Below, one piece after another: positions 26,043 to 53,949 of a DNA stretch of 56,623 nt (positions are counted from its first letter, which is position 1; every line of letters begins with the position of its first letter). Position numbers and translations under genes: made by a program. Below the pieces are notes generated by a model, which worked only from the letters and a program-made list of their open reading frames with translations, was not told the DNA's origin and made no database searches. This DNA comes from a virus (lineage: Duplodnaviria; Caudoviricetes): the IMG/VR virus record IMGVR_UViG_3300035156_000125, positions 1 through 56,623 of that record, one strand, 5' to 3'.

Positions 26043-26576
26043 CTAAAAGTTATTTTCCAGAGCTTCGCTGATTTCCTTAATCTTTTCCGGTGTTAGTTCG
26101 GTGTTGTAATTTAGGTTTCTGTTAATATTCTCCGTTTTTTCTCTCCATTTATCCGGCTGTCGGTTCATTAACCAAAACTTAGCGGCGACTGTATCAGGCG
26201 GCACTTCTTGCGTCAAATCAACTATTTCTATTTCTTCTGTTTGAGAAATCTTACCGTTGTGGTCGGGCGTTTTTGTAGTTAGTTTTATTGCTTGCTGTAC
26301 TGTAATTGTGCATCCTTTAGCTCTTTCATATAATGAATTTGCAATTTCCGCATCTGCTTTAGCCTTTCCGTTGCCCACGGACACGGAAAACACTTCATGA
26401 ACCTTCTTCCATTCATTTATTGTATCCTCGTGTACTTCAAAGTAAGTTCCCAATTCAGCATCGGTAAACCCCAATAAACACAACTTGTACGCTTGTTCGG
26501 CGTACTCATCTTTGTACTTTGTAGGTCTTCCACCTTCATTTCCCTCTGCAAACTTATTTCCTTCCGGTGCTGCCAT
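26043..26576 (-). CDS. terS: Terminase small subunit
   Basis: GNKFAEGN.GGRPTKY, HTH, PPDTVAAKFWLMNR. Confidence 0.9.
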   Translation of the reverse strand: MAAPEGNKFAEGNEGGRPTKYKDEYAEQAYKLCLLGFTDAELGTYFEVHEDTINEWKKVHEVFSVSVGNGKAKADAEIANSLYERAKGCTITVQQAIKLTTKTPDHNGKISQTEEIEIVDLTQEVPPDTVAAKFWLMNRQPDKWREKTENINRNLNYNTELTPEKIKEISEALENNF

Positions 26577-26581
26577 AACCT

Positions 26582-26644
26582 ACCAATATTACTCACTCCC
26601 ATCACTCCCGCTTACTTTATTTTGTAACAGGTGGGGCGGTGTTA
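26582..26644 (-). promoter_or_regulatory. Putative late promoter for the terminase genes
   Basis: TAACA-N10-TGTTA-N33-TAATATTGGT. Confidence 0.7.
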
Positions 26645-26654
26645 GTTAATTCCG

Positions 26655-26837
26655 TCACTCAATAATTAAATATGATACCAATTCAACCTTCCTTATCTTT
26701 TTGTATATGTCCTTAGCAAAAAGAGAATCTATGCCTTCGTAATACTTCCTTGCCTTAAAGAGAGCATCTTCAATACTTTCCGCTTTTATATAAACAAGAG
26801 GTGCAATGCAGCTCGATGTTTCGATTTTGTATAGCAT
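26655..26837 (-). CDS. Hypothetical protein
   Basis: 60-aa ORF in operon. Confidence 0.65.
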   Translation of the reverse strand: MLYKIETSSCIAPLVYIKAESIEDALFKARKYYEGIDSLFAKDIYKKIRKVELVSYLIIE

Positions 26838-43749: not shown

Positions 43750-44967
43750 ATGATCCAGACAGTAAGCTATTCAGAACCTGTATTGTGCCACTATAACTAT
43801 GACTTAAATAAGTCCTGGTTTGTTCATTTCGATGTAAAAAATATTGTTACCGGGGAAGTTAGCCGGCAACAGTACCGCGGGAAAATAAATAGATTTAAAA
43901 CTAAGGCAGAGCGGCTTGTGGTTGCAGGTAGAATAATTTCCTTTTGGAAGGGAGAAATTAAGCGCGGCTGGAGCCCTTTTGAAAAAGTTGAGAAGGACCC
44001 CACTACTTCCTTCAATGCCGCAATTGATTTCGGCTTATCTAAATGCAAGGTTGCAAAGAAAACTTACCAATGCTATAAAAGCACAGCGGGCTTTATTAAG
44101 TCTGCAGCTACAAAGACCGGGCTGCACAAAAAGTCTATTGCTGATATTAAGCGGGTACATATTAAGCAGATATTAGAATCGGGGCAATCCACTTTTACCT
44201 GGTCCAACAAGTCCTACAACAAGCATTTAAATTACCTCAAAGCTATACTTACTCGTGTTGTTGATTGGGAAATAATAGAAAACAACCCTGCCTTAAAGAT
44301 CAAAACCTTACCTGTTGACGAAACGGAAAAGTACGTTCCTTACACCGATGCAGAGCGAAAAGCGATACAAGAATACCTTTTCATGCATCATTACCGCTTT
44401 TTCGTGTTCCTTATGTTTGTGTACCATGCCGGGGTCCGCCCAAAAGAAATACTTGCATTGAAGATTAAAGACATTGACTTGATCAACATGCAAATAACCA
44501 TCCTGCCAAACATGGAAGCCGGCAACAGTAAGACCCGTAAGATCCGCAAAATCCCAATTAGTAAGGCGCTATTGCCATTTCTAAGGGAGTTGCAATTAAG
44601 TGCATACAGCCGGGAGTGTTATGTATTTGGAAGTCCTTACGAGGCGGGAAAGGGTAACCGTGGAAGTTCTGCAGGCGGGCTATCAGGTGCGATGCATCCC
44701 GAATATTTTAAGCCGTCCGCTACAATGATTAAAAGAGATACAGTTACCAGACTGTGGAAGAAGGTTATAATGGAGAAGCTGGGGATTGAAAAACACCTGT
44801 ACGCGGCGAAGCATTCAGGCGGGAATGCAAAAATTATGGCCGGTATCAGCATAGATGCTTTACAAGAACTTTATGGTCATTCATCCCGCTTAATGACTGA
44901 AAAATATGTTTCCGAACTAAAGAAGGTTCACTTCAATCAGATAATTGAGCTTTCTCCAGACTTTTAA
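43750..44967 (+). CDS. int: Tyrosine integrase
   Basis: GVRPKEI, KT, HLYAAKHS, LYGHSS...TEKY. Confidence 0.95.
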   Translation: MIQTVSYSEPVLCHYNYDLNKSWFVHFDVKNIVTGEVSRQQYRGKINRFKTKAERLVVAGRIISFWKGEIKRGWSPFEKVEKDPTTSFNAAIDFGLSKCKVAKKTYQCYKSTAGFIKSAATKTGLHKKSIADIKRVHIKQILESGQSTFTWSNKSYNKHLNYLKAILTRVVDWEIIENNPALKIKTLPVDETEKYVPYTDAERKAIQEYLFMHHYRFFVFLMFVYHAGVRPKEILALKIKDIDLINMQITILPNMEAGNSKTRKIRKIPISKALLPFLRELQLSAYSRECYVFGSPYEAGKGNRGSSAGGLSGAMHPEYFKPSATMIKRDTVTRLWKKVIMEKLGIEKHLYAAKHSGGNAKIMAGISIDALQELYGHSSRLMTEKYVSELKKVHFNQIIELSPDF

Positions 44968-47532: not shown

Positions 47533-47562
47533 AAAAAAGCCCGCCGTAAAAAACGGCAGGCT
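47533..47562 (-). terminator. Terminator ending the late/lysis transcript
   Basis: AGCCTGCCGT-TTTT-ACGGCGGGCT-TTTTT. Confidence 0.85.
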
Positions 47563-47583: not shown

Positions 47584-48168
47584 CTAACTATTCAAACACT
47601 TATAAAAACTCGTCCCGTACGTCCCGATCTTAAAAGCCTGATCCAATGAATTAATTATCTTTCGCGCGTTCAACCAGTCAGACTTCTTATCGTTAAAGTA
47701 GTCCACTAACTTTCGCCCCGTAAATACTCCCTTAATCATCCCGTCGAACAATATTGTCGTTGCGGTTTCGAGTTCTAAAGCCTTTTCAGGATGGTCAGCA
47801 ATACCGAACTTTTCATAGTTGGCTCGTCCGGTAATTTGCGCCATGCCGCGCCCTCTAAACCGTGCCCCGTCGCCCACATTCGTATTGCCTAACAACTTAC
47901 CGACTTTCGTTTGCGGACCGTAACGGCGGTTAAAATACGCCTCTGTTCCAGACTCGTTAATCGCTTGGAATGTCTTTGCGCTTTCGTGATATACCGTCGC
48001 ACAGATGTATGCAAGCCACCTCAAATCGTCCAATTCCCTTCGCTCCCATTCGTCAATGATAGCATTCATACCGTCTACCTGTAACTGTGAAAGTTTGCCA
48101 TTAAAGAAAGACTTCCGTACACGGTCAAAAAATGCTTTACGGTTTATTTTCGTTGCTACTGTTGGCAT
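47584..48168 (-). CDS. Endolysin, GH19 chitinase-like
   Basis: LAY..AT..HES, FRGRG..QITGR.NY, ARKIIN. Confidence 0.9.
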   Translation of the reverse strand: MPTVATKINRKAFFDRVRKSFFNGKLSQLQVDGMNAIIDEWERRELDDLRWLAYICATVYHESAKTFQAINESGTEAYFNRRYGPQTKVGKLLGNTNVGDGARFRGRGMAQITGRANYEKFGIADHPEKALELETATTILFDGMIKGVFTGRKLVDYFNDKKSDWLNARKIINSLDQAFKIGTYGTSFYKCLNS

Positions 48169-48182
48169 TTGAAATTGTTTAT

Positions 48183-48310
48183 TATCTTTGAAATTGGAGC
48201 CGAAAAACCTTGCTTTTACGTAGGCAGGCTAAATGCAAAGCAGTTACTATGTACAGAGTATGACCGCACCGCATGACAGGCAGGAGCCACTTTAACGAGT
48301 GGCTTTTTTT
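48183..48310 (+). ncRNA. Putative ~115-nt sRNA antisense to the spanin-endolysin junction
   Basis: TATCTTTG at 48183-48190; terminator AGCCACT-TTAACG-AGTGGCT-T6. Confidence 0.55.
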
Positions 48311-48896
48311 ACGCCACAAACTTCCTAACCAACCCGACCGCCCCGGCTAATACCGCCAACCCAACTAGAGTGTAAACGATCCACATATAACCGGGTGCCT
48401 CCCTTTCGACCTTCTTATTCACGTCTTCCGTCTCTTTCGCAACCGATGTACGATTACTTTTCTCGGAGGCAAGGCTGTCTTTATTTGAGTAGGTGCCGGT
48501 TTGCTTGGTTTGGAGCGTTCCTTTTTCGCGGATGGTAATTTTACTTACCCTGCTTTCATTTCTAATTCCCCTGATTTCGGGGGAATTAAAAGATAGGCTT
48601 GTACGGGTAGGGCGTATGGTTGCCATGTTCCCGACATTGGTGTCGGGAACATACTCAACGACCGTTTCCCGCTCCCAGGTTTCGTTGCCTTCCTTCGTAA
48701 TCGAGCTGTCATGGGTGCTGACGTTCGTTTCTTGCTGACTGCTGATACTTGTGCTGTCCGTGCTTGTCTTGCTTCGCTGTACGGTCTTGTGTACGCTGCA
48801 CGAGGTAAGCAGGGTCAGTACGGCTATTGCTATCAGCATCATTGACCAGACCGATGCTATAAAGGTTCGCGGGTGGTTGTAGAAATAGGTTGTCAT
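48309..48896 (-). CDS. Unimolecular spanin-like lipoprotein
   Basis: Lipobox LTS-C after a hydrophobic stretch plus C-terminal TM helix; next to the endolysin. Confidence 0.75.
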   Translation of the reverse strand: MTTYFYNHPRTFIASVWSMMLIAIAVLTLLTSCSVHKTVQRSKTSTDSTSISSQQETNVSTHDSSITKEGNETWERETVVEYVPDTNVGNMATIRPTRTSLSFNSPEIRGIRNESRVSKITIREKGTLQTKQTGTYSNKDSLASEKSNRTSVAKETEDVNKKVEREAPGYMWIVYTLVGLAVLAGAVGLVRKFVA

Positions 48897-48902
48897 TGTG
48901 GT

Positions 48903-49097
48903 TTATTTTAATTCATGCCATTCAAAGCCATATATGTCTACGTTATTGCTTTTTATATGACTAAAGTCTTTTTTCGCATCCTGTTCGTTTTCAAAATATT
49001 TCAAATTCTCTTTTCGAGTTGAGCCGCCGCCCCTTGTTCTATACAAGGGCTTGGAGGTCGTATTGTTTAAGGTTTCGTATGTGTAATATCCTTTCAT
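48903..49097 (-). CDS. Hypothetical protein
   Basis: 64-aa ORF. Confidence 0.6.
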   Translation of the reverse strand: MKGYYTYETLNNTTSKPLYRTRGGGSTRKENLKYFENEQDAKKDFSHIKSNNVDIYGFEWHELK

Positions 49098-49323
49098 AAT
49101 AGCTATCCCTTTTACTAAGTATCGCTTTTCTGCACACTTTTTTCAGCTATCCGGAATTTCCGGACAACTCAATTTTGAGGTTTCCTTTTGTTTACCCTCG
49201 GCTTAACCGATACCTGACCTAGGTATTACCTAGTGCAGCTATCCCTTATTATATGTTCCGCATTTTTGCAAAGTCTGCAAACTTGCAAAGAACTAACGCA
49301 ACCCTAACCAGTTGCTTTTTTTA

Positions 49324-49506
49324 TTAAATTGTTATGTAGAAATTGGCCAACCTTTCCCAATTAACATTTTTATTTCGCTCTATCATCTCGCATTTCTTTT
49401 TCAATTCGATTAACTGCCTTCTCATTTTGGGACTATTATAGTCAATTGTTTTTACTTTGGTTTTAGTTCCCTTTTTTAAAATGTCTTCAATTTTAGTCTT
49501 TGGCAT
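49324..49506 (-). CDS. Hypothetical basic protein (inserted cassette)
   Basis: 60 aa, flanked by ~18-bp direct repeats. Confidence 0.6.
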   Translation of the reverse strand: MPKTKIEDILKKGTKTKVKTIDYNSPKMRRQLIELKKKCEMIERNKNVNWERLANFYITI

Positions 49507-49549
49507 GTATTATTTTTTAGCGACTCTGCGAATGTAACCGGTTGCTTTT

Positions 49550-49933
49550 TTATGGCTCCATGTTTACAATCTTACCATCTGCGACGTCCGTTTTTCTGTC
49601 AACGATTTTGTTTATAGCCGTATCGGTCTTACTAAGCAAAGCCTGCAAAGTGGATGATCCGGTATAGCCGACAAAGACGAACAGCCACTTGACAAACTCC
49701 CCTACAATCGGCTTATACTTAATCAATTCATCAATACCCATCAAGGCAATGATTAAAGCGATTACGGACGCGCTTAACGCAATCCAGTCGTCCTGCAGGT
49801 AGTTGCCAAAGCTGAAATGTATATTGGCTACTGCCGACCTCTTTTTGAGCGCTGGCAGCTTAATTACAAACACGTGGAACAGTAGTCCCAACATTCCCAT
49901 TCCGAAGCACTTCCAAAGTAGTATGATACTCAT
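49550..49933 (-). CDS. Holin-like membrane protein
   Basis: 2-3 TM segments, charged C-terminus, in lysis cassette. Confidence 0.65.
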   Translation of the reverse strand: MSIILLWKCFGMGMLGLLFHVFVIKLPALKKRSAVANIHFSFGNYLQDDWIALSASVIALIIALMGIDELIKYKPIVGEFVKWLFVFVGYTGSSTLQALLSKTDTAINKIVDRKTDVADGKIVNMEP

Positions 49934-50193
49934 TTTCTATAATTTTCAGGTAAAACAATATTGGCTACATATTTGGTCAGCATACAGGCGGCAAACGATA
50001 CCCCGGCCTCTGTAGTTGTGTGCATTGGCGCAAAGAACACGGCAAGTAATATGAAGCTGTACTCTAACCAAAATGCTGCATCGCGGACCAATTGAAACTG
50101 GTTTAAATCCTTGTCCTGTATATATTTTAATAGCTGCTTAAAACCTAACAGTACCACTACAAACACAAGATCGTAGACATATATGCAGGTCAT
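49930..50193 (-). CDS. Small membrane protein (holin/antiholin candidate)
   Basis: 2-3 hydrophobic segments, ATGA-coupled on both sides. Confidence 0.6.
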   Translation of the reverse strand: MTCIYVYDLVFVVVLLGFKQLLKYIQDKDLNQFQLVRDAAFWLEYSFILLAVFFAPMHTTTEAGVSFAACMLTKYVANIVLPENYRK

Positions 50194-50432
50194 TTCGCAA
50201 GCATTTTTAAGATGATATCTTTCAGGTCGCGCATGATCTCGTTATTATCTATTACGAGCTTTGCTACCTGCTTATTCAGTTCCTTTATCTCCACGTCTTT
50301 TTCACGGATCAGTACATCTTTTGTATTGATAACCCCGGTGAAATACTTGTACATGAAGTAGCAGAAAAAGCCAAGTACAACAATTACCGGTAACTGCTTT
50401 AATAGAAAATCTTGTATTATTTGCGGGTCCAT
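50190..50432 (-). CDS. Single-TM coiled-coil protein (holin-like)
   Basis: LPVIVVLGFFCYFMY then heptad repeat. Confidence 0.65.
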   Translation of the reverse strand: MDPQIIQDFLLKQLPVIVVLGFFCYFMYKYFTGVINTKDVLIREKDVEIKELNKQVAKLVIDNNEIMRDLKDIILKMLAK

Positions 50433-50435
50433 TAG

Positions 50436-50918
50436 CTATTTTTTTTCTAGTCTTTCCAGTATACGTTTTGCTGCCTCTTTCAATTCGCGGTCTTTTTCGC
50501 CCAGTACGTGCGCTTTCATTATCTTTCGCTCCATATCAATCTTTGCCTGGTAGACCTTTTCTATTACCTGCCTAAACCAATTAACGTCAGGACTTTTTTT
50601 GACATAGTAAGATCCCACACGTAGCCGGATAATGTCTAGTAATTGGGGAACGTTCGTTGCCCCGCTTACAAATACCGGCGCTATTACATTCTGTATCTGC
50701 ATCACGCTTTTCATTACCTGTACGCCCGTCCCGCTGCCTTTCAAATCGTAATCACTAACGACAACGCAGGGCACGTCAGGCTTTATGGCAGCAATAAGAT
50801 GTTGCGCATCGCTGTAAAATGTAGCCTCTAGTTTTACCTCTGCGAAATACTCCTGCATCAATTGCAGGTCATCTAAATCATCGTCTATCACAAACACTTG
50901 GATTTCCATTATTTGCAT
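50436..50918 (-). CDS. Stand-alone response-regulator receiver (CheY-like) with C-terminal helix
   Basis: VFVIDDD, VVVSD56Y, G..V, VFVS85G, YYVK107K. Confidence 0.88.
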   Translation of the reverse strand: MQIMEIQVFVIDDDLDDLQLMQEYFAEVKLEATFYSDAQHLIAAIKPDVPCVVVSDYDLKGSGTGVQVMKSVMQIQNVIAPVFVSGATNVPQLLDIIRLRVGSYYVKKSPDVNWFRQVIEKVYQAKIDMERKIMKAHVLGEKDRELKEAAKRILERLEKK

Positions 50919-50961: not shown

Positions 50962-53949
50962 CTATTGAAAATGCAGACTTAATATGTTTATTTTCCTGTC
51001 ATAGTTTACTCCAAACATTTTCACCCTTACCCGCTTTGGATTTTGCCAATTCGCTAACGGGTCACTCACTGGTACTACAATGGGTGTGTAATCCGCATAA
51101 GCGAACCTTACACCTGCCGATGTTGCAGAAATGGTTAACGGTTGATTTCTCCAAAGAACGTTACTGATGAATGGCAGCCCACCTTCGGAATGTATCAGGT
51201 TGCCATTGCCATACACGTTGCGTGGATTAGTACCGCCAAAGCTGATTGTGTGGTTGAACCGAGCTATTACCCTGTCTGCATTGTCCAACACTTCCAGGTA
51301 TGTACCGCCCTCAAATGCGTCCGGGAAGCAATATTCCAAATTGATAACAGATGATACCGTCCATGAATTTCGGCCTGCTATGTACGTTGGAAAGTCTTTG
51401 TATACTTGATCTTCTGATCCGGGAACTGTCTGCTTATAGTTCACATACAAGTCACCCGTTTCACGGCGCAGGTATTTCATGTTGTAAGTTTTGATATTCC
51501 AAAACCTACCATTTACCGCGTCTGTTTCTTCTGCACGGCTTCTGTACCATCCGCCGTCACCACTTACCAGAACTGTATTGTAATCCAGTCCGTTCATCAT
51601 ATCAGTAGGGTCTACGGGTACAGCATCGTAAGGCTGTACAAGGGTAATAGTGGTTTCACTTTCAACTACGGTATTTAATCCACTTATTTTCCAACTATGT
51701 ACACCACCATGAACGCTTTCATCGTTGTGGACGAGATAATAGTTACTCCCAATAGTTGCCATCTTTGCGCAAAAGCTATTTCCGGCCATCCCTGCTGCGC
51801 CGCTTGCACCGCCATCTTGTGCCCCAAATTGTCCTACCATTAGTCCGTTATCCCAAACGTGTTGCCACATATTGCACTGGCCACCTTTCCAAAATTCACC
51901 GTGATAACCCCAGAAGATTGATCTCCCTTGCACCCTTGCAACGCTTCCTGCATAAGCAGGCCCTCCACCGTATTGCGCCTCGCCGTTGCCTATGTCAAAA
52001 TCTCCGTTTGAAGGAAACCTGCCGCGGTAGTAAGGAAATGTAGGTAATGATGTTCGCCATTTCCATGTGGATGCACCAAGTTCTACAGCGCCAAGATGAT
52101 ATTTTTCAGAACCATTTTGAGAGGGGGTTTGACTGCCTGGCATAGCACCGTCAAATACAACCATTAACCCCGACGTTGTTTGCTCTCCCGGTGCAAGGGT
52201 TCCACCTACACCCATGTAAGCGGGATCATCTTCGCCTATGTTTGGAGTGCTTGCAAGTGCCGTAAATGAACTTGCCCAAATTGGGTTGTTGCTGCCATCA
52301 AATCCGGTCAATGCTTTTTTGTACCATACTAACGGCTCATTTGTACTTCTGAAACTGTAGATGTACCTGATAGAACCGTCTGCATATAATTCATTACTTC
52401 CTATGCCAAACGTTATACCTGTGTACCGAAGTAATGCAGTTGGCATGACTTCCATTACACGCCAATTTGCACCGCCTTGCGTATTGTACATTAACCCGTA
52501 AGCCCTGCCGTTTGAAAATGTAATCGGATTTTGAAAGGATAGATTGTTTGCGTCAATACTTCCTATGAAGTTTCTTTTTAGTAACCACCCGGTACTACCT
52601 GAGAGAGTTACGTTATAGTCTCTCTCAAATTCAAGATGATCTGAATAAATGCGTGAAGGGTTATTTGGGTCTATTGAACTATAGTAAGAGTGAGGGATAT
52701 AAGCAATCTGGTCTATGTAAGTACCGGCACTGTTATAATGCATGTTTCGGTAACTGTTCTTGTCGCCTATCCAAAAAGAACCATCTGATTGAAATGCTAT
52801 ATACGAGTTATCAAAGCTGAATTTGTAATTTGTAACGGCTGGGGAAGTAAGGTAGCCGCCTGCTGTTCCTACTGTTATTGTGGGCGCTCCGGTACTTGTG
52901 TTATACAGCTTGGCTTGTTGTACTGTACTTGCATCCAACACTCCTATAACGCTTCCCTGTGATCCCACACCGCCGACCTTTGTAAACCCTGTGAGGCTGA
53001 TACCGGATGCAGTGAAATTTCCACTACCGTCGATTGTATATTTCGTTACTGTTGTATTCCCGAGTGTTACCCAAAGTGCATCTGCATCATCCCGAGCTAG
53101 GTGTCTTGCATTTTCAAAACTTTGTGTGCGGATTAATGCCCCTGTTGTTTTGTTGTAAACTTCCACCCCCGCGCTTCGGGACACGTAAAGAAAATTGGTT
53201 CCTACTGCCATCCCATAGACTGATCCTCCTACTGCAATTGCGTTATTATAGCCCTGATAAGATGAACCGCTACTAAACGCTACTTCTGTATTGTCTGCAG
53301 TTGAAGTTGCAAATACCCATGTACTTGCATTTTCTTTATCCCCGGCCCAATAAACGCGGGTTCCATCGGTGCAGCTAAATTCTGTTGATTGACTTACGCC
53401 GTTTTCCCTATCGGGAAGCACATTCAACATTTCCTGTTTTTCGCTTAACAGGAATGACTTTTGAGAAGTAGAGCGCTCGTTATAATGTACGCTGTAATAT
53501 CCTTTCGTACTACTAAAACACATCGAAGCAATAGGCAAAAAGCCTTTGTGAATAAGATCGCCTGTAAACGATTTGCTTGTGTTGCCAATTACGCCTTCCC
53601 ACGTATAGGTGACGTTATTTCTTAGTACTTTGATTTTGTAAGTTCCTGCTGCTATATCAGCATAATCATCGTCGGTTCCATCCCATGTGTAAGTATGCGT
53701 GCCGGCAGGGTAAACCACGTTGTTAAATATGCCCCGGATTAAGACATTGTTTGTTGTATAAACTCCGGCAGATACCGTTTGCGTTGATGGTGTTGCAAAC
53801 ACAATATCCAGTCCTTCGCCACCTACTACGGGGATTGTCACTGTGTCTCCTTTTACGTAAACCTTAGAACCACGTTTAATGTAGATGGAGTTTTGCGCAT
53901 TCGTGGAAATGGCTAATGCTGCAAAGAGTATTGAGATTAGTAAACGCAT
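50962..53949 (-). CDS. Exported protein: signal peptide, FlgD-like Ig domain, beta-propeller
   Basis: MRLLISILFAALAISTNA|Q; GVY....LIR...AGTHTYTWDGTDD...GTYKIKV. Confidence 0.72.
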   Translation of the reverse strand: MRLLISILFAALAISTNAQNSIYIKRGSKVYVKGDTVTIPVVGGEGLDIVFATPSTQTVSAGVYTTNNVLIRGIFNNVVYPAGTHTYTWDGTDDDYADIAAGTYKIKVLRNNVTYTWEGVIGNTSKSFTGDLIHKGFLPIASMCFSSTKGYYSVHYNERSTSQKSFLLSEKQEMLNVLPDRENGVSQSTEFSCTDGTRVYWAGDKENASTWVFATSTADNTEVAFSSGSSYQGYNNAIAVGGSVYGMAVGTNFLYVSRSAGVEVYNKTTGALIRTQSFENARHLARDDADALWVTLGNTTVTKYTIDGSGNFTASGISLTGFTKVGGVGSQGSVIGVLDASTVQQAKLYNTSTGAPTITVGTAGGYLTSPAVTNYKFSFDNSYIAFQSDGSFWIGDKNSYRNMHYNSAGTYIDQIAYIPHSYYSSIDPNNPSRIYSDHLEFERDYNVTLSGSTGWLLKRNFIGSIDANNLSFQNPITFSNGRAYGLMYNTQGGANWRVMEVMPTALLRYTGITFGIGSNELYADGSIRYIYSFRSTNEPLVWYKKALTGFDGSNNPIWASSFTALASTPNIGEDDPAYMGVGGTLAPGEQTTSGLMVVFDGAMPGSQTPSQNGSEKYHLGAVELGASTWKWRTSLPTFPYYRGRFPSNGDFDIGNGEAQYGGGPAYAGSVARVQGRSIFWGYHGEFWKGGQCNMWQHVWDNGLMVGQFGAQDGGASGAAGMAGNSFCAKMATIGSNYYLVHNDESVHGGVHSWKISGLNTVVESETTITLVQPYDAVPVDPTDMMNGLDYNTVLVSGDGGWYRSRAEETDAVNGRFWNIKTYNMKYLRRETGDLYVNYKQTVPGSEDQVYKDFPTYIAGRNSWTVSSVINLEYCFPDAFEGGTYLEVLDNADRVIARFNHTISFGGTNPRNVYGNGNLIHSEGGLPFISNVLWRNQPLTISATSAGVRFAYADYTPIVVPVSDPLANWQNPKRVRVKMFGVNYDRKINILSLHFQ

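Follow-up and report, generated by a model that had tools for sequence, protein, structure and literature searches.

Introduction

The moment of lysis sets the burst size and fitness of a phage. To our knowledge, lysis timers described so far are either intrinsic to the holin or are antiholins that sense superinfection. Antiholins include S107 of phage lambda, RI and the cytoplasmic RIII of T4, and LydB of P1, and we know of none that is a phospho-switch or reads host two-component signalling. Single-domain response regulators act by protein contact, as CheY does with FliM and as do Spo0F, DivK, CpdR and the adaptor RssB, and in LytSR-LrgAB a two-component system controls holin-like genes at the level of transcription. 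Here, we describe a stand-alone receiver (REC) of 160 amino acids (aa) encoded on the minus strand at positions 50436-50918 of IMG/VR virus record IMGVR_UViG_3300035156_000125. The whole stretch of 56,623 bp was analysed and is called the window. The receiver gene is followed by three coupled genes for small membrane proteins in a block that ends with an endolysin gene, and we tentatively propose that the receiver docks at the membrane and tunes lysis as a phospho-switch.

Like the single-domain regulators, the window receiver has no output domain, and its expected output is phosphorylation-dependent contact with a partner. In contrast to them it is viral and has neither a cognate kinase nor an Hpt, and the partner proposed for it is one of the membrane proteins of the lysis block. 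With the antiholins it shares the proposed role of modulator of holin triggering, encoded beside the holin, but it has no sequence or fold relation to them. The nearest printed cases are transcriptional: in the available part of the report on it, the PhoB-like regulator RoeA is tied to the lysis cluster of Yersinia entomophaga through transcriptional control. RoeA and LytSR are likewise response regulators functionally linked to a holin/endolysin cluster; however, both are bacterial DNA-binding transcription regulators, whereas the window receiver has no DNA-binding domain. DtcB of the Detocs system is, in the portion of its description at hand, a stand-alone 'buffer' receiver proposed to absorb phosphate, but it belongs to a three-gene bacterial defence operon with its own kinase DtcA and effector DtcC, whereas the window is a phage without a kinase. 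The cREC domains of jumbo phages are linked by neighbourhood to NAD+/ADP-ribose-processing enzymes and never occur in kinase systems, as stated in the accessible text of the paper (PMC7824862). The neighbours of the window receiver, in contrast, are membrane proteins without NAD+/ADP-ribose enzyme domains.

The domain itself is ordinary. What is unusual is a viral receiver without a kinase that is coupled gene to gene to membrane proteins of a lysis block, in an arrangement that recurs in unrelated phages. A literature search gave no paper linking a phage-encoded receiver to holin or spanin genes. If the proposal is true, receiver domains would have a new class of output, phages could tap directly into signalling on host energy or the envelope, and lysis timing would be under a kind of control unlike any known antiholin. 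An analogous module in the cultured Alteromonas phages V22 and A5 makes the idea directly testable.

Domain, residues and fold of the receiver

A preliminary description of this DNA had reported a CheY-like receiver of 160 aa without a DNA-binding output domain. The open reading frame (ORF) is present at 50436-50918 on the minus strand, and its product passed the curated cut-off of the Pfam hidden Markov model Response_reg (PF00072), which covered residues 8-109 with an expectation value (E) of 2.1e-07 and 31.5 bits against a cut-off of 30.2. In a six-frame search of the genome with Response_reg, the receiver scored 31.9 bits. All residues of the phosphorylation pocket and switch were found, namely D12, D13, D56, S85, Y105 (the aromatic switch position) and K108. 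The first four stood exactly where they had been placed earlier. The canonical lysine had been given as K107 and has to be corrected: lysines occupy both 107 and 108, and the invariant one is K108 (13/13 sequences in alignment A1 and 50/50 in alignment A4). D56 was likewise invariant in A1, and D13 and D56 were at least 90% conserved in A4.

Since the fold predicted from the single sequence was poor (predicted local distance difference test, pLDDT, 61), a model made by AlphaFold2 with 50 aligned relatives was used instead. This model had a mean pLDDT of 96.5 and a (beta-alpha)5 flavodoxin-like fold, with a core at residues 7-112, strands at residues 7-11, 33-35, 51-56, 79-85 and 104-107, and five helices. 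Helix 5 extended unbroken as one long amphipathic helix over residues 113-159, so that the helical tail, put at about 35 aa in the preliminary description, measures about 48 aa; hydrophobic residues occupied 11 of its 14 heptad a/d positions. Foldseek gave the DctD receiver plus linker (1L5Y and 1QKK) as the best fold matches, and the top-ranked of the 178 PDB matches at E <= 0.001 that were listed were nearly all receivers. The best profile match among solved structures was the NtrC1 receiver plus linker (1ZY2, 1.8e-14), and the ESM Atlas likewise supported a receiver. The (beta-alpha)5 receiver and a helix 5 that runs into a long linker helix are common to the window protein and to DctD/NtrC1 (1QKK, 1L5Y, 1ZY2). 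However, the window protein carries neither the AAA+ sigma-54 activator nor a DNA-binding output domain: it stops with the helix at residue 160, and the next gene codes for a membrane protein. As modelled, the protein combines a receiver with a helix of coiled-coil type and lacks an output domain. It would be an intact, phosphorylatable single-domain response regulator in which helix 5 is prolonged to a coiled-coil-type helix of about 70 Angstrom. The receiver matched no lysis PHROG when antiholin membership was examined. Its gene is native in composition, with a GC content of 0.431 against 0.423 +/- 0.031 for the genome and ordinary codon use.

The receiver was divergent. Among 1.84 billion representative sequences just 100 were found at E <= 1e-3, and one besides the receiver itself reached 1e-10. 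The top relatives (P0002, P0003, P0004 and others) were stand-alone proteins of 150-176 aa that aligned over their full length with 26-32% identity and in which the tail region was conserved, and 40 of the 100 relatives were no longer than 180 aa. Three of the 100 (P0011, P0061 and P0078; 161-165 aa) consisted of a receiver, a helix and a predicted C-terminal membrane anchor, which indicates that membrane placement recurs in the sequence neighbourhood of the receiver. The small number of relatives and the borderline Pfam score would also suit a protein that works independently of phosphorylation, either as a dimeric coiled-coil adaptor making an RssB-like contact or as a cREC-type hydrolase with a receiver fold. 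NCBIfam detected a weak similarity of the receiver to RssB, far under the cut-off, and cREC domains have been described in phages (PMC7824862, available text). We consider such a scaffold or enzyme very unlikely: the phosphorylation pocket and switch have retained all their residues in the window, and for the most part in the family as well, and the adjacent genes encode membrane proteins, not the NAD+/ADP-ribose enzymes that define cREC.

Membrane-protein genes coupled to the receiver gene

The stop codon of the receiver gene (TAG) is followed by 3 nucleotides (nt), CTA, and then by the ATG of a gene for an 80-aa protein. ATGA overlaps join this gene to one for an 87-aa protein, and the latter to one for a 127-aa protein. 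The 3-nt gap to a gene for a transmembrane-plus-coiled-coil protein and the two further ATGA-coupled membrane-protein genes, all noted earlier, could thus be read directly in the sequence.

The 80-aa protein (50190-50432, minus strand) has an N-terminal membrane helix (about residues 9-27) and a C-terminal coiled-coil-like helix with heptad periodicity, and is the candidate membrane partner of the receiver. Lysine and arginine residues number 0 on the N-terminal flank of the membrane helix and 2 on the C-terminal flank. Because of the positive-inside rule, the protein is predicted to be N-out/C-in, and its coiled coil should face the cytoplasm, on the same side as the receiver. No match to Pfam over the cut-off, to PADLOC or to NCBIfam was obtained for it, and two PHROG families of unknown function were found at E of 0.0055 and 0.0066. 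The 87-aa protein (49930-50193, minus strand) has hydrophobic peaks at residues 2-18, 39-55 and 65-81, two of them strong and one weaker. It matched no Pfam, PHROG or NCBIfam family, and by size and shape it may be called holin-like. The 127-aa protein (49550-49933, minus strand) also has two strong hydrophobic segments and one weaker one, followed by a charged C-terminal tail; its size, hydrophobic helices and position make it the best holin candidate. For the 127-aa protein there was no Pfam match over the cut-off, none in NCBIfam and none to a PHROG family with a known function. A PADLOC scan of 10 proteins, the 87- and 127-aa proteins included, gave nothing at E <= 0.01.

Six homologues of the 127-aa protein were found besides itself. 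One of them, 49% identical, lies in the region between the tail fibre and the endolysin of a complete 53.5-kb phage with terminal repeats (G001), and the 127-aa family seems to move between lysis regions. In G001 the homologue stands between a 137-aa multi-helix membrane protein and more small membrane proteins, upstream of the endolysin. G001 was considered as a relative of the whole phage and rejected, as there was no match between the large terminases and the 127-aa protein alone was common to both.

A comparable gene order in Alteromonas phages

A fold search of viral models led to a stand-alone receiver of 149 aa in Alteromonas phage V22 (gp30, MN877442). Equivalent receivers were found in A5, a schitovirus (gp11, OP481051), and in two IMG/VR contigs (L013 and L014). 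All four distinct records (V22, A5, L013 and L014) had the same gene order: tail fibre and chaperone, a small coiled-coil protein, the receiver, an Rz-like spanin pair and a membrane protein. The small protein before the receiver is weakly hydrophobic at its N-terminus; it has a coiled coil and a basic C flank and is predicted to be C-in, and the receiver gene starts 1-4 nt after its gene. The protein after the receiver has an N-in membrane helix and matches an Rz-like spanin family (phrog_4297, 7e-06), and its gene overlaps the end of the receiver gene. An overlapped ORF with a lipobox, a candidate o-spanin, was also present, and its copy in V22 lacks annotation. The last gene in the order encodes a two-helix membrane protein of 87-92 aa, a holin candidate. 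An endolysin or amidase was directly adjacent in 4/4 records, and no kinase over the cut-off was found in V22, A5, L013 or L014. In V22 (L009, MN877442) the lipobox ORF codes for 99 aa at 26492-26791, has the lipobox LTGC and overlaps ORF31, the product of which matches an Rz-like spanin PHROG, with equivalents of the lipobox ORF in L013 and L014; the 99-aa ORF and ORF31 look like an overlapped o-spanin/i-spanin pair in their sequence features.

The window and V22/A5 (gp30 and gp11) are alike in that a phage without a kinase encodes, after its tail-fibre genes, an orphan receiver that is about 150 aa long and has a helical tail at its C-terminus. Next to the receiver are two small proteins, one with an anchor and a coiled coil and the other a membrane protein of two helices, and an endolysin is nearby. 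The arrangements also differ. In V22/A5 the receiver precedes an Rz-like two-component spanin, whereas in the window a u-spanin-like gene lies further downstream; and the anchored coiled-coil protein comes before the receiver in V22/A5 but after it in the window. The window receiver and the V22 receiver were 25% identical over 89 residues (E 0.014), and their membrane partners showed no sequence similarity to each other. Judged from these sequences, the receiver-lysis arrangement is therefore either very old or has arisen more than once.

The V22 receiver matched 154 GenBank records, of which five were opened besides V22 and one, A5, was kept. The others were dropped: the match in Burkholderia phage vB_E427 is a 229-aa protein that is not stand-alone and lies beside an RND (resistance-nodulation-division) adaptor, those in Pseudomonas Y11 and MT835472 belong to regulator-plus-kinase operons, and that in OQ658365 lies in host flank beside an integrase.

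Kinase searches and the proposed tuning of lysis

Searches for HATPase_c, HisKA and Hpt gave no match at E <= 1 in the complete 56,623-bp record, while the search controls responded. The earlier claim that the genome has no histidine kinase is borne out, and a cognate kinase or Hpt encoded alongside the receiver, as in a classical two-component system, is absent.

In the mechanism that we propose, the receiver would be made late, along with the three small membrane proteins encoded at the start of the lysis block. As the phage has no kinase, a host histidine kinase or acetyl phosphate would supply the phosphate. Its long helix would dock on the cytoplasmic coiled coil of the 80-aa protein, or on the holin candidates, and its phosphorylation state would shift the moment of holin triggering, making it a cytoplasmic phospho-switch antiholin or pro-holin. 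We hold this proposal as tentative, with chances well short of even, because we infer each of three steps: the source of phosphate, the docking and the effect on the holin. A broader version is doubtful. In it, the lysis cassettes of several unrelated phage lineages would contain an orphan receiver that a helical partner, or an anchor of its own in fused forms, keeps at the cytoplasmic face of the membrane, and this receiver would read host phosphorylation through acetyl phosphate or a host kinase and time the holin.

The interpretation as a lysis timer, first raised in the preliminary description, is favoured by the translational coupling of the receiver gene to three membrane-protein genes in a block that ends with an endolysin and a strong terminator, by the gene order of 4/4 Alteromonas-type records, and by the predicted cytoplasmic side of the coiled coil in the 80-aa protein. 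Several results weigh against it. The Pfam score of the receiver exceeds the cut-off by 1.3 bits. The 80-, 87- and 127-aa proteins matched no holin, antiholin or spanin family in Pfam, PHROG or NCBIfam, and in phage G001 the 127-aa protein is present although the receiver and the 80- and 87-aa proteins are missing. A hairpin and a 226-nt gap with repeats split the receiver module from the u-spanin and endolysin genes, and the two sets may be transcribed as separate units. Cargo genes are usual in the slot that lies between tail fibres and lysis genes. None of three other phage records (G001, Bacteroides phage BF503P4 and MT835612) had a Response_reg match, and 7 of 8 scans of viral, metagenome and genome contigs gave no relative of the window receiver family. 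Finally, the V22 and A5 papers, in the parts available, class the receiver as an auxiliary metabolic gene (AMG) of class II for signalling within a host-recognition module. In the same parts, gp29, gp31 and gp32 are unassigned and the words holin and spanin do not appear.

The intact phospho-acceptor residues and the lack of a phage kinase would also fit a phosphate sink or decoy, an alternative raised in the preliminary description, in which the receiver would, late in infection, draw off or obstruct phosphotransfer from one or more host kinases. It could act on envelope-stress or hybrid two-component systems, or on a defence that relies on a kinase, such as Detocs. Its place beside membrane proteins would then be a coincidence, or would do no more than bring it close to membrane kinases. 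Stand-alone receivers that buffer phosphate are documented, with DtcB of Detocs as the case in the accessible description, and classing the Alteromonas receiver as a signalling AMG, as in the available text of those papers, agrees with a sink. However, a sink needs neither the conserved 48-residue coiled-coil tail nor tight coupling to membrane proteins. The receiver had no match in PADLOC (E <= 0.01), so it is not a close relative of DtcB, with the limit that PADLOC may lack a DtcB model. In addition, the gene occupies a late-operon position, and counter-defence would be expected early. A sink is in our judgement fairly unlikely.

Distribution of the receiver

The seven contig scans without a relative were made with the sequences of the window receiver, P0002 and P0101 and with the alignments A2 and A3. 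The eighth scan returned a partial match of 25 residues in an Omnitrophota metagenome-assembled genome, which was dropped. One word-indexed protein search returned the receiver itself alone, and another returned 10 proteins, of which 3 belonged to the family. In tblastn searches of GenBank phages nothing was found for the window receiver or P0010. The match of P0022 was one high-GC contig with an ordinary regulator-plus-kinase pair and was dropped as bacterial, and P0078 and P0011 gave generic receivers only, mostly in records resembling bacterial contigs. Several GenBank records filed as phage (MT835949, OQ572412, MT835472 and OQ658365) carry bacterial regulator-plus-kinase operons or host flank, and receiver matches in such records therefore need checking case by case.

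From its absence in the three other phage records, the receiver gene is, by sequence comparison, accessory and dispensable. The same absence suits a cargo (moron) module, in which the receiver and the 80- and 87-aa proteins sit in an insertion-tolerant slot between the tail-fibre and lysis genes and act in the lysogen or during infection in a way unrelated to lysis, for example in superinfection exclusion, envelope remodelling or another form of host takeover. In one case, G001, these three proteins are jointly missing while the 127-aa protein is present; a hairpin follows the four-gene module; and the phage is temperate, with an integrase gene at 43750-44967. On the other side, no promoter-like element precedes the receiver gene, which begins just 43 nt from the tail-fibre gene, its composition is native to the genome, and the Alteromonas receiver gene overlaps an i-spanin gene inside a lysis cluster. 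We regard a cargo module as unlikely.

Layout of the lysis block and the phage genome

Upstream of the receiver gene lies the gene of a tail-fibre-like protein of 995 aa (50962-53949, minus strand), and the 43 nt between them hold no terminator or promoter-like site. From the receiver gene onwards there was no terminator until a strong one after the endolysin gene. The hairpin that follows the four-gene module (repeat family D1; 49528-49553, minus strand) lies directly after the 127-aa gene and has further copies at 49298-49323 and 48286-48311. Because an A-run precedes the stem on the coding strand, D1 looks like a terminator for the opposite strand only. Each of the three copies stands directly after a minus-strand stop codon, those of the 127-aa, 60-aa and 195-aa genes.

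The 60-aa ORF (49324-49506, minus strand) encodes a very basic soluble protein of unknown role (16 lysine and arginine against 7 aspartate and glutamate residues) without a family match. It is followed by the 226-nt non-coding gap (49098-49323, minus strand), which contains a 34-nt direct repeat, D2 (49101-49134 and 49237-49270), and three TTTGCA words on the minus strand. The gap may serve the 64-aa, u-spanin-like and endolysin genes that come after it as an internal promoter or operator. The 64-aa ORF (48903-49097, minus strand), taken from the ORF list and the sequence, encodes a soluble protein of unknown role.

The 195-aa protein (48309-48896, minus strand) has a signal, the lipobox LLTSC (Cys33) and a C-terminal membrane helix at residues 173-189. 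It matched no spanin family, so that the earlier assignment as a u-spanin stands in so far as the lipobox and the membrane helix are those of a unimolecular spanin; by these features the protein may be called u-spanin-like. The endolysin (194 aa; 47584-48168, minus strand) matched phrog_181 (endolysin, 1.6e-33) and the PDB endolysins 9MS7 and 4OK7. It had been described as an endolysin of glycoside hydrolase family 19 (GH19); the endolysin part of this is supported, but for GH19 there was no Pfam or NCBIfam match and only a 'chitinase' PHROG at 4.6e-08. The block is closed after the endolysin gene by a hairpin resembling an intrinsic terminator (47538-47562, minus strand), with a stem of 10 pairs, including 7 G-C pairs, and a T run behind it.

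The IMG/VR record of 56,623 bp is a whole genome (CheckV completeness 100%), and nearly every gene of the phage is on the minus strand. The minus-strand order is replication, terminase, portal, major head protein, tape measure and tail fibres, and it is the tail-fibre genes that wrap around the ends of the record; they are followed by the receiver/lysis region, then by an HNH gene and then by the integrase gene, which is on the plus strand. From the integrase and the set of structural genes, the phage is therefore temperate and tailed. The closest large terminases among GenBank phages were those of phage contigs from human faeces (43-45% identity) and of Bacteroides fragilis phages (37%). A Shine-Dalgarno-like core was found upstream of just 2 of the 53 minus-strand genes checked, and upstream regions were A-rich, which we take to fit a Bacteroidota host. 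Of these two genes, one is that of the receiver, whose ATG has AGGAG 6-10 nt ahead of it. One sequencing run was listed as containing this DNA, a DNA run labelled biocrust metagenome that may be the source sample, and no RNA run was listed. A promoter pattern of the Bacteroidota type showed no enrichment (4 matches in the genome, where 5.6 were expected), with none near the receiver gene, and an Rfam scan gave nothing relevant and no family in the 226-nt gap. A 25-nt inverted repeat, 84% complementary, was also present at 48929-48953 and 50161-50185. The repeat, with arms 1207 nt apart, may be due to chance; its first arm falls within the 64-aa ORF and its second close to where the 80-aa and 87-aa genes meet.

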